Origin: Candidatus Hermodarchaeota archaeon
Lineage (GTDB): Archaea > Asgardarchaeota > Hermodarchaeia > Hermodarchaeales > Hermodarchaeaceae
Reading direction: 5' to 3'
Assembly (NCBI GenBank): GCA_016839805.1
Contig: JAEOTO010000001.1
Span: 1-35,320, forward strand
DNA: 35,320 nt
Shown: piece after piece, positions 12,123 to 34,085 of the stretch
How positions within the stretch are numbered: the first letter of the stretch is position 1
Layout: each line of letters opens with the position of its first letter
Translations under genes and position numbers: made by a program
The notes under the pieces: generated by a model
What the model was told of the DNA's origin: nothing
What the model saw: only the letters and a program-made list of their open reading frames with translations
Database searches by the model: none

Positions 12123-12242
12123 GTTATAAGCTCCCTCAGGTTCAATAATAGTTGTTGGTACTCCGACTTCACCTAAGAACTTTTTTGGCACATCCCGGCT
12201 CCTATACTCTAGTAATCGGTGGGTAATACTAGCAATCCTTAT

Positions 12243-12461
12243 TTTAGACCTCAAGACGACCCCGTCCTTCAGGTCGGGAGTAATCGTGAGGTTTAAATTA
12301 TCCTCCGCATATCCAGGATTGAGGTTCCGGTGGGGACCGAGAATCAAGGTCCCATGAGACCGGGCAACATCGCTGGAACGGCGAGTAGAGCTTGTGGACC
12401 AGTCGGCAATAGTCGATGGTATGAAGCAGGAAGCTCCGTCCTTCAGGTCGGGGTAGTTCAC
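12243..12461 (+). mobile_element. Non-autonomous IS200/IS605-family mini-element (PATE/MITE-like), copy 1, 219 bp
   Basis: Near-identical subterminal hairpins CCCCGTCCTTCAGGTCGGGAG (left) and CTCCGTCCTTCAGGTCGGGG (right); right end GAAG...GTAGTTCAC; preceded by CCTTAT in the same register as copy 2; no ORF. Confidence 0.82.
12292..12297 (+). promoter_or_regulatory. TATA box inside mini-element copy 1
   Basis: TTTAAA conserved in both copies, 24-25 nt ahead of the conserved scaffold start GAGGT.CCGG. Confidence 0.6.
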
Positions 12462-12481
12462 AGGTTTCAGCTATTCATGGA
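12321..12481 (+). ncRNA. TnpB omegaRNA/reRNA-like scaffold (12321-12461) plus putative guide AGGTTTCAGCTATTCATGGA
   Basis: About 88% identical to 17651-17792, with pairing-preserving substitutions; TGAA/TTCA pseudoknot potential; ends at the IS right end. Confidence 0.7.
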
Positions 12482-17460: not shown

Positions 17461-17569
17461 TTCACACACTTTCCACTTTATCATAATTTTATACTGTTCT
17501 CCCTTGTACACTATCCCCTACTTATAGGAATATCACCGCGAAAGAACCTTCCAGGACGCTCTCCCTTAT

Positions 17570-17792
17570 CTAAGGCTTCGAGAAGACTCCGTACTTTCAG
17601 GGTAGGATTGAATAGTGGAGTTTAAATAGATTTTTAAAAGCTCCTTAGTCGAGGTCCCGGTCGGTGACCAAGAACCAAGGTCCACAGCGACCGGGCAACA
17701 TCGCCGGAACGGCGAGTAGAGCCTGTGGACCAGTCGACAATAGTCGATGGCATGAAGCAGGAAGCCTCGTCCTTCAAGTCGGAGTAGTTCAC
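17570..17792 (+). mobile_element. Non-autonomous IS200/IS605-family mini-element, copy 2, 223 bp (left hairpin degraded)
   Basis: Colinear with 12243-12461: CCTTAT flank, left-end remnant AGAAGACTCCGTACTTTCAGG, TTTAAA, scaffold, and GAAG...GTAGTTCAC right end. Confidence 0.8.
17621..17626 (+). promoter_or_regulatory. TATA box inside mini-element copy 2
   Basis: TTTAAA at the same position relative to the scaffold as in copy 1. Confidence 0.6.
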
Positions 17793-17812
17793 AGTTGTCC
17801 TTCCAGGCACCA
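17651..17812 (+). ncRNA. TnpB omegaRNA/reRNA-like scaffold (17651-17792) plus putative guide AGTTGTCCTTCCAGGCACCA
   Basis: Stems CCCGGTCG/CGACCGGG, TCGCCG-GAA-CGGCGA, CCTGT/GCAGG and TCGAC-AATA-GTCGA; homologous to copy 1. Confidence 0.7.
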
Positions 17813-33791: not shown

Positions 33792-34085
33792 AATTGGTGG
33801 CTTGTACTTCGCGTCCTATTACTGAACACGGTACGTCAGGGTGGTTGACGGCACCCCGGGTTCAATGCGGTCTACGTCATTGAGCCACAGCCATATAATA
33901 TTTGTAGCAGCGACTACATCGGCATTGTTCTGATACTTACACCTTTGACAACGATAGTTGTCACGCCGTCTGTGGCACTTCGAGACCATTCCACATGCGG
34001 GACAGCGTTGTGAGGTGTAAGCTGGATCCACTGTTGTCATAGGAAGACCCAGTTCCTCAGCTTTGTACTCTGTTTCCTTCTCTTC
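33773..34085 (-). mobile_element. IS200/IS605-family right-end remnant (tnpB 3' part plus right end)
   Basis: Minus strand ends CAAG-CCACCAATTTCAATCGGTGG-AAGTTGAC; left part missing. Confidence 0.85.
33819..34085 (-). pseudogene. tnpB: Truncated RNA-guided endonuclease TnpB (Zn ribbon and RuvC-III only)
   Basis: EYKAEELGLPMTTVDPAYTSQRCPACG...YRCQRC...NADVVAATNI; an in-frame stop at 34086-88 bounds it upstream. Confidence 0.9.

Follow-up and report, generated by a model that had tools for sequence, protein, structure and literature searches.

Positions 12321-12461 of a 35,320-nt stretch of DNA (the window), taken from a metagenome-assembled genome (MAG) of the Asgard archaeon Candidatus Hermodarchaeum, recur further along in a second, diverged copy, and the differences between the two copies led an earlier note to propose that selection acts there on the structure of an RNA whose function might have outlasted the mobility of the DNA encoding it. 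The locus raises the question of what this RNA is, whether its fold is indeed maintained, and whether its carriers have stopped moving. The region is a TnpB omegaRNA scaffold in copy 1 of a gene-less IS200/IS605 mini-element, and compensatory substitutions maintain its fold, of which a GGAAC:GUUC pseudoknot is part. The best explanation, to which we attach a probability of about 80%, is that an ISDra2-like IS200/IS605 element (tnpB-only, IS1341-type) of Hermodarchaeum (Asgard) gave rise to a non-autonomous derivative without a protein gene, and that the region is the guide-RNA (omegaRNA) scaffold of this derivative. Five parts of the parental element are kept by the mini-element, namely the left end, the tnpB promoter box, a copy of a tnpB-internal hairpin, the 3' scaffold and the right end.

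The repeat pair lies in direct orientation and spans 137 nt in each copy (12332-12468 and 17663-17799, 88% identity). When copies 1 and 2 are compared together with their flanks, the similarity begins further left, at a common ...CCTTAT, and ends directly past GTAGTTCAC. The exact limits of both copies (Table 1) follow from the closest relative, genome G013, whose flanking sequences are 87-92% identical and in which both sites are empty and precise. At the site of copy 2, G013 reads ...TTTAT/AGTTG... (slashes mark junctions) where the window has TTAT/element/AGTTG, and the two G013 matches abut exactly; at the site of copy 1, the element is likewise absent from a second genome, G010. Insertion thus took place directly 3' of TTAT without target duplication and without inverted terminal repeats (TTAT/element/flank in the window, TTAT/flank in G013), which is the signature of the IS200/IS605 family. 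The TTAT motif is kept at the left junction of most copies and of full-length tnpB elements. Copy 1 contains no specific ORF, and both copies lie outside real genes. Copy 1 is flanked by a gene for a hexapeptide-repeat transferase and by one with a weak match, below threshold, to a polysaccharide-deacetylase family, and copy 2 is preceded by a gene for a flavodoxin-like protein. The combination of subterminal hairpins at both ends (weak at both ends in copy 2) with no protein-coding gene is that of non-autonomous IS200/IS605 elements, or PATEs.

The same layout recurs in 39 aligned copies, the first half of which comprises TTAT, the 5' part of the left end, the left hairpin and the pair of motifs GATGAATCGTGGAG-TTTAAATA, and the second half a spacer whose length does not vary (in copy 1 it is 19 nt), the scaffold, the right hairpin, AGTTCAC and an unrelated flank. 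The left-end hairpin of copy 1 is nearly the same as its right-end hairpin, and the region that contains it is homologous to the left end of a full-length element on another contig of the same genome (C41). At gathering thresholds, no Rfam family matched anywhere in the window. Sub-threshold scores were obtained for HgcC (16.5 bits), RAGATH-18 (19.9 bits) and sot0042 (8.5 bits), the respective thresholds being 50, 44.9 and 88 bits; all three families are associated with the guide RNAs of transposons or with transcripts that overlap tnpB. The HgcC match covers 12332-12476 (+) of the window and the full length of the model.

Table 1. Features of the two mini-elements in the window.
Feature	Position	Strand	Remarks
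TTAT target motif (TAM), copy 1	12239..12242	+	empty site in G013 reads ...CCTTAT/AGG...
Copy 1 mini-element, 219 nt	12243..12461	+	limits set by the empty site in G013
Left-end subterminal hairpin, CCCG-T-CC / TTCA / GG-T-CGGG	12261..12278	+	DNA fold -4.0 kcal/mol
Promoter-like GTGAGG-TTTAAATT (BRE/TATA)	12286..12299	+	TTTAAA begins 27 nt before the scaffold
Variable spacer, TATA box to scaffold	12300..12318	+	35% mean pairwise identity, conserved length
Scaffold 5' domain, loop GAGAAYCAA	12319..12366	+	outer stem 12326-12331/12359-12364, inner stem 12336-12338/12348-12350
Helix 4 (ISDra2 stem 1 equivalent), ACATCGCT / GGCGAGT, loop GGAAC 12375-12379	12367..12386	+	both-sided changes in 5/5 core pairs, 92 sequences
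Pseudoknot 5' strand GAAC	12376..12379	+	pairs with GUUC 12456-12459; helix 98% paired
Helix 5 (CTTGT/GCAGG, ISDra2 stem 2 equivalent), around helix 6	12391..12430	+	both-sided changes in 4/5 pairs, 92 sequences
Helix 6 (stem 3 equivalent)	12399-12407/12412-12419	+	both-sided changes in 8/8 pairs, 92 sequences
Right-end subterminal hairpin (omegaRNA stem 4)	12434..12453	+	both-sided changes in 6/7 pairs
Invariant 3' tail AGTTCAC	12455..12461	+	99-100% identity; element end confirmed by empty-site junction
Predicted 16-nt guide, flank AGGTTTCAGCTATTCA	12462..12477	+	same as the post-TTAT sequence of the empty site
TTAT target motif, copy 2	17566..17569	+	empty site in G013 reads ...TTTAT/AGTTG...
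Copy 2 mini-element, 223 nt; scaffold 17649-17792	17570..17792	+	G013 matches abut exactly; model R1 161.6 bits

Within the window, the case for RNA structure had rested on three switches between G-U and Watson-Crick pairs and on a nested 5' stem. The switches are real, at 12374 (T/C, U-G vs. C-G, in TCGC[T/C]G-GAA-CGGCGA), 12392 (T/C, in C[T/C]TGT...GCAGG) and 12406 (G/A, G-U vs. A-U, in TCG[G/A]C-AATA-GTCGA), and the nested stem is kept in both copies; a fourth switch occurs at 12326 (T/C) in the CCGGT/ACCGG stem, and all four replace a G-U pair of copy 1 by a Watson-Crick pair in copy 2. Altogether the two scaffolds differ at 18 positions, 10 of which lie in unpaired columns, 4 in non-terminal helices, where every change keeps the pair, and 4 in the right-end hairpin, where three break a pair in the register of the model. 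By our estimate, the chance that all four changes in the non-terminal helices would keep their pairs is about 1 in 16, if the C or the G of a C-G pair is equally likely to be hit. Since all four are single transitions, the two copies alone do not exclude a transition bias, and they are the observation that speaks for regarding the copies as neutral relics, alike through recent amplification and with pair-keeping changes produced by that bias.

The wider family renders such a neutral origin extremely improbable. Both-sided changes affect 27 of 44 predicted pairs in 52 sequences of the genus and, with the pseudoknot included, 37 of 41 pairs in 92 sequences of the phylum. In the latter set, 706 cells carry both-sided changes (208 +/- 13 in shuffles), and 91.5% of the cells are paired, compared with 31-46% when the partners are slid by 1-3 columns. 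The 34 gene-less copies, independently aligned with MAFFT without reference to structure, give the same picture: 18 of 40 pairs with both-sided changes, against 10.3 +/- 1.8 in shuffles (0 of 500 reach 18), and 93.3% of cells paired, against 26-44% with slid partners. Compensatory changes are found in every helix, in the 34 gene-less copies as in the 92 relatives, and they include transversion pairs (C-G to G-C, U-A to A-U), so a transition bias cannot produce the pattern. Between the gene-less and the tnpB-linked class, whole helices are swapped in compensatory fashion, TCGCCGG/CGGCGA in the former corresponding to CCGAGGG/CCTCGGG in the latter and CCAGTCGRC/GYCGATGG to GCTGTCAGC/GCTGAAGC. 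Recent amplification fares no better as an explanation, for the spacer is near saturation (35% identity) in the very copies whose core is 87-91% identical.

Mean pairwise identity among 31 copies is 26% in the flanks, 35% in the spacer, 49% in the left hairpin and 56% in the 5' part of the left end, and rises to 61% in the right hairpin, 68% in the 5' domain of the scaffold, 78-87% in the BRE/TATA box, 87% in the scaffold core (91% within this genome) and 99-100% in the tail. Unconstrained positions are thus close to saturated, and the core, the promoter and the tail are conserved. The promoter-like box is also held at a fixed distance: TTTAAA lies exactly at -27 relative to the scaffold in 24 of 33 gene-less copies (at least 100 bits) and at -28 in 3 more, most of the remaining gene-less copies carry variant boxes such as GTTAAATA, and none of the tnpB-linked copies has TTTAAA at this place. 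In archaeal promoters, a TATA box at such a spacing directs transcription to start at the first bases of what would here be the scaffold, and the position of TTTAAA would fit this geometry.

The claim that selection acts on RNA structure beyond the two hairpins used by TnpA is therefore upheld by compensatory changes in all helices, by the kept promoter box and by the contrast between spacer and core. A different objection is that the pairings are single-stranded DNA structures serving excision and insertion by TnpA, a view that draws on two facts: the RNA and the top DNA strand are identical in sequence, hence covariation alone cannot tell the two apart, and TnpA is known to act on the right-end hairpin (PMC10055086). 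TnpA, however, needs only the subterminal hairpins and cleavage motifs (PMC10055086), whereas five further helices and a pseudoknot co-vary here. Each helix of the fold moreover has its counterpart in the solved ISDra2 omegaRNA, many of the pairs are of the G-U type, which is weak in DNA (with DNA parameters, copy 2 reaches 0.0 kcal/mol in its right hairpin), and the promoter box is conserved at its fixed distance, all of which makes a purely DNA-level origin of the pairings scarcely credible.

The fold has the arrangement of a TnpB omegaRNA in several respects. In such RNAs the right-end hairpin lies at most 10 nt from the scaffold end (PMC10278001), and in the mini-element stems 2, 3 and 4 follow one another in the order of the solved ISDra2 structure, with the right-end hairpin no more than 10 nt from the 3' end. 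The scaffold stops at the right-end boundary of the transposon, after AGTTCAC, and the predicted guide, derived from the flank, comes next. ISDra2-like omegaRNAs also overlap tnpB or lie directly 3' of it; among the high-scoring copies, no tnpB was found overlapping the scaffold or directly upstream.

The partner of the 3' tail could be settled from the variation between relatives. The terminal GUUC pairs with the GGAAC hairpin loop of helix 4, as in the pseudoknot seen by cryo-EM in ISDra2, where -5U to -3C pair with -103A to -105G and -6G and -2A are engaged in non-canonical pairs (PMC10097598). Counted from the element end, the mini scaffold has G-U-U-C-A-C at -6 to -1, GAA at -32 to -30 and GCAGG at -36 to -32, that is, the same register as ISDra2, and the helix 4 loop is the only GGAA(C/U) strand upstream of stem 2 in all classes. 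At the pair formed by the loop A/G and position -5 (U/C) of the tail, the 92 sequences comprise 80 A-U, 10 G-C and 1 other combination; every tail with C at -5 is accompanied by a loop G, and no tail with U at -5 is. G-U variants also occur, and the combinations of loop and tail are GGAAC with AGUUCAC in 58 sequences, GGGAC with AGUUCAC in 13, GGGGC with AGCUCAC in 6, GGUGC with AGCUCAC in 3 and GGAGC with AGCUCAC in 1. The G-C state arose at least twice, in a Hermodarchaeum tnpB element (L016) and in a group from other genera.

This corrects the pairing partner that had been proposed for the tail. The earlier note had paired an invariant TGAA (12422-12425) with the terminal TTCA (12457-12460); the two motifs are identical in both copies and complementary, as it stated, and their pairing was rejected, with no both-sided change, 20 mismatched sequences and a fit no better than that of shuffles. 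Two other candidates were discarded as well. A closing stem drawn by RNAalifold between 5' UGAG and 3' UUCA shows no both-sided change, does not exceed shuffles and involves a part beyond the ISDra2 scaffold as resolved. No covariation with the tail was seen for the GAA at -32 to -30; the corresponding prediction for ISDra2, pairing of the tail with -30 to -32, was found to be wrong in the cryo-EM study (PMC10097598).

As regards its relatives, the window's genome (50 contigs, 2.31 Mb, 86.7% complete) contains 10 copies of the mini-element, all without a protein gene, from which a covariance model, R1, was built. With R1, gene-less copies were found in 6 other species of the genus and weaker relatives in other families of the phylum. 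Two diverged versions in the window's genome each overlap an ORF at its 3' end (414 aa in one case, 406 aa in the other), and the ORFs concerned, on contigs C41 and C22, encode TnpB (Pfam OrfB_IS605, Cas12f1-like TNB domain, HTH_OrfB_IS605). The C41 TnpB aligns over its full length with ISDra2 TnpB (8H1J/8EXA, E about 6e-68), and the alignment to its best match, a designed ISDra2-like nuclease, shows the three catalytic motifs (GIDVG, IIVES, DRDLN) where they are expected. The full-length element on C41 begins with TTAT/CGAAAACTGCGAGAAGAC, followed by a hairpin, GATGAATTGCGGACTTCAAATA and, about 22 nt further on, the ATG of tnpB; its left end is homologous to that of the mini-element, and an element of genome G006 has the same TTAT junction and a homologous left end. 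The mini-element is, by virtue of these shared left ends and TTAT junctions, a deletion derivative that has kept the left end and the box preceding tnpB, its own box being the counterpart of the one that the full-length element has ahead of the start codon of tnpB. Elsewhere in the window, an 88-aa open frame at 33822-34085 (-) consists only of the C-terminal TNB zinc-ribbon domain of TnpB (PF07282, E 5e-20); it is a truncated tnpB remnant, with no scaffold beside it by model R1.

Homologous scaffolds that score 68-87 bits overlap ORFs of 343-418 aa. A tnpB gene with a scaffold of the mini type was found neither in 15 genomes of the genus and 61 relatives, nor among the matches listed in a GTDB pattern scan, where the best listed outside the Hermodarchaeota score at most 81 bits and are of other types, nor in JGI metagenomes, whose 9 matches are all gene-less. 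The matches listed in the pattern scan, made on one genome per prokaryotic species, include many archaea and bacteria with the core motifs (TGTGGA ... GAAGCAGGAA ... AGTTCAC), here too with the helices swapped. Since the nearest tnpB-linked scaffolds differ from that of the mini-element in all helix sequences and are without its 5' domain, the use of the mini RNA by the C41 or C22 TnpB is an assumption. Use of one of these proteins in trans is plausible, given a shared left end, a shared TAM and the report that TnpB reads the omegaRNA scaffold mainly through its backbone (PMC10097598).

Related elements also occur outside the genus. A separate family of gene-less minis without the 5' domain (L313-L320) is present in other Asgard genera (genomes G056, G047 and G016); these have a left hairpin, GATGAATTG, TTTATATA, about 25 nt and a scaffold that begins directly at helix 4, together with a pseudoknot loop GGGGC or GGTGC and the tail AGCTCAC. 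Records of Methanogenium and Methanosarcinaceae (L085, L071, L076, L098) contain related scaffolds of 60-76 bits with no upstream ORF; L085 and L071 have a TATA-like box about 25 nt upstream, and L085 has a 5' hairpin with a GAGAACCAA loop. Such minis may be common in methanogens too.

Whether the copies are still mobile bears on the most far-reaching suggestion of the earlier note, namely that the left DNA hairpin of copy 2 has decayed while its scaffold is intact and that RNA function has therefore outlasted mobility. The hairpin is indeed weaker (-1.1 kcal/mol, compared with that of copy 1 in Table 1), and so is the right one (0.0 kcal/mol, against -2.8 in copy 1); weak left hairpins are common across the family, in which left hairpins average -1.9 and right hairpins -4.1 kcal/mol as DNA. 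Both copies in the window are insertion polymorphisms relative to G013 and have moved or been excised recently, the mini-element being polymorphic between close species; copy 2 cannot, for this reason, be called immobile, and the survival of RNA function beyond mobility is not established. A Y1 TnpA (PF01797) was not matched in the window's genome, an absence that is no proof in an incomplete MAG. Among 14 genomes of the genus, one encodes such a protein, and it is G013, the relative with both empty sites. This TnpA (L262, on contig C208) belongs to a divergent tnpA/tnpB pair with a hairpin unlike that of the minis, CCACCGATT-TCA-ATCGATGG, and with the tail GTAGTTGAC. As the mobiliser of the minis it is an unlikely candidate, its element having a different hairpin and no match to model R1.

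If the copies were immobile, their scaffolds could be kept because the host, or a regulator derived from TnpB, uses the RNA as a domesticated guide. We consider this improbable, even though some observations lean that way: in two orthologous pairs from different species, 124 of 130 core positions are identical, compared with 310 of 370 in the left hairpin, spacer and 3' flank (Fisher p = 4e-4), several high-scoring scaffolds are preceded by left hairpins that do not fold as DNA, and the genome yielded no TnpA. By the first of these, the scaffold core does seem to change more slowly after insertion, a hint drawn from only two pairs and small counts. Against domestication stand the empty sites themselves, precise in G013 for both copies and found again in G010 for copy 1, the patchy copy number across the genus, which ranges from 0 to about 15, and a copy (L200) with several changes at otherwise invariant core positions. 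Furthermore, each guide matches its own flank only: for 11 predicted 16-nt guides, no second TTAT-adjacent target exists in the genome, so a self-targeting (homing) role fits better than a regulatory one.

The reading of the region as the scaffold of a mobile, protein-less derivative suggests the following course of events. Directed by the TATA box of the element itself, transcription would begin at about 12320-12323 and run past the right end into flanking DNA, the first 16 nt of which would be transcribed as the guide. The resulting omegaRNA would carry a guide matching the element's own empty site (TTAT plus flank), and the TnpB of a full-length relative would load it, an intact candidate being that of contig C41, with the same left end and TTAT. 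After excision, TnpB would cut the empty site, and repair from a sister copy would restore the element. Selection on the RNA would then be part of the element's own persistence, not of a host function.

The scaffolds of tnpB-linked relatives lack the 5' domain of the mini-element. Its outer stem shows both-sided changes in 5 of 6 pairs in the gene-less set, and its loop, GAGAACCAA, is almost invariant. An exact CGAGAACCAAG is found inside the C41 tnpB of the window's genome (L015 in G000), in the codons for LIRENQAIIVE just before the RuvC-II Glu, and a nested hairpin with the same loop occurs at these codons in all 10 tnpB genes of the genus that were examined (including L015, L016 and L215-L228). 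Across the 10 genes, the inner stem of this internal hairpin undergoes synonymous compensatory changes (TGAT/ATCA vs. TAAT/ATTA), and the outer stem does so partially. The 5' domain of the mini-element is thus a copy of the tnpB-internal hairpin, joined in cis to the scaffold, and within the loop of this copy stands GAAC, the sequence of the pseudoknot strand. With regard to the tnpB-internal loop and the tail, L016, the one informative sequence, shows no co-change, and the elements with AGCTCAC tails that were compared are minis without the 5' domain.

These observations invite a bolder proposal, which we regard as doubtful: instead of being fresh products of deletion, the minis might form a guide-only lineage that is long-lived and evolves independently, and the borrowed hairpin might be an inbuilt decoy for the pseudoknot or a switch of its formation. 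The idea of such a lineage arises from this scaffold type having been found in gene-less form only, from the saturation of neutral positions and from the hint of constraint in orthologous copies. In the mRNA of AmaTnpB, an inhibitory region adjoins the RuvC-II codon, and its pairing with the omegaRNA has been suggested (Nety et al., 2023, PMC10278001). If the proposal were true, the hairpin would tune the use of the RNA by a foreign TnpB and would be a cis counterpart of that inhibitory region. The odd 5' domain of the mini-element is in any case linked to a tnpB-internal hairpin located where this published, mRNA-borne effect maps.

The basic phenomenon is already published, since PATE-like, protein-less IS200/IS605 derivatives of Geobacillus stearothermophilus encode omegaRNAs that are used in trans (Meers et al., 2023, PMC10055086), and the finding is for this reason solid and unsurprising. 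Its value lies in a data set of about 45 gene-less copies and 45 other relatives from which the ISDra2 architecture and its pseudoknot were recovered in Asgard archaea from covariation alone, and in showing that mini-elements of promoter plus guide can be more numerous and longer-lived than the nuclease-carrying elements from which they derive. With the PATE-like elements and the stand-alone omegaRNA loci cited in the same study (PMC10055086), the mini-element shares hairpin ends, the lack of a protein gene, multiple copies and an omegaRNA in need of TnpB in trans. It differs from PATEs in its Asgard host, in an archaeal TATA box that stems from the tnpB promoter and stands at a fixed distance, in an additional 5' domain copied from the interior of tnpB, and in that neither a tnpB with the same scaffold nor a matching TnpA was found.

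With the ISDra2 omegaRNA (Nakagawa et al., 2023, PMC10097598), the mini scaffold has in common the 3' GUUCAC, a GGAA(U/C) strand whose partner is -5 to -3, a stem 2 that occupies -36 to -32, a stem 3, and a stem 4 that is the right-end hairpin; the ISDra2 pseudoknot, GGAAU/GUUCA, has the same position and sequence as that of the mini-element (PMC10097598), and the class of protein partner, represented by the C41 TnpB, is the same. In contrast to ISDra2, the mini-element has a shorter stem 3, a stem 1 loop cut down to the 5-nt pseudoknot strand and TTAT instead of TTGAT as its TAM, and its scaffold overlaps no tnpB reading frame. Finally, the 5' domain resembles the AmaTnpB inhibitory region (PMC10278001) in that it copies a hairpin at the equivalent place of tnpB, an equivalence by position only, and it differs from that region in being fused in cis to the scaffold.
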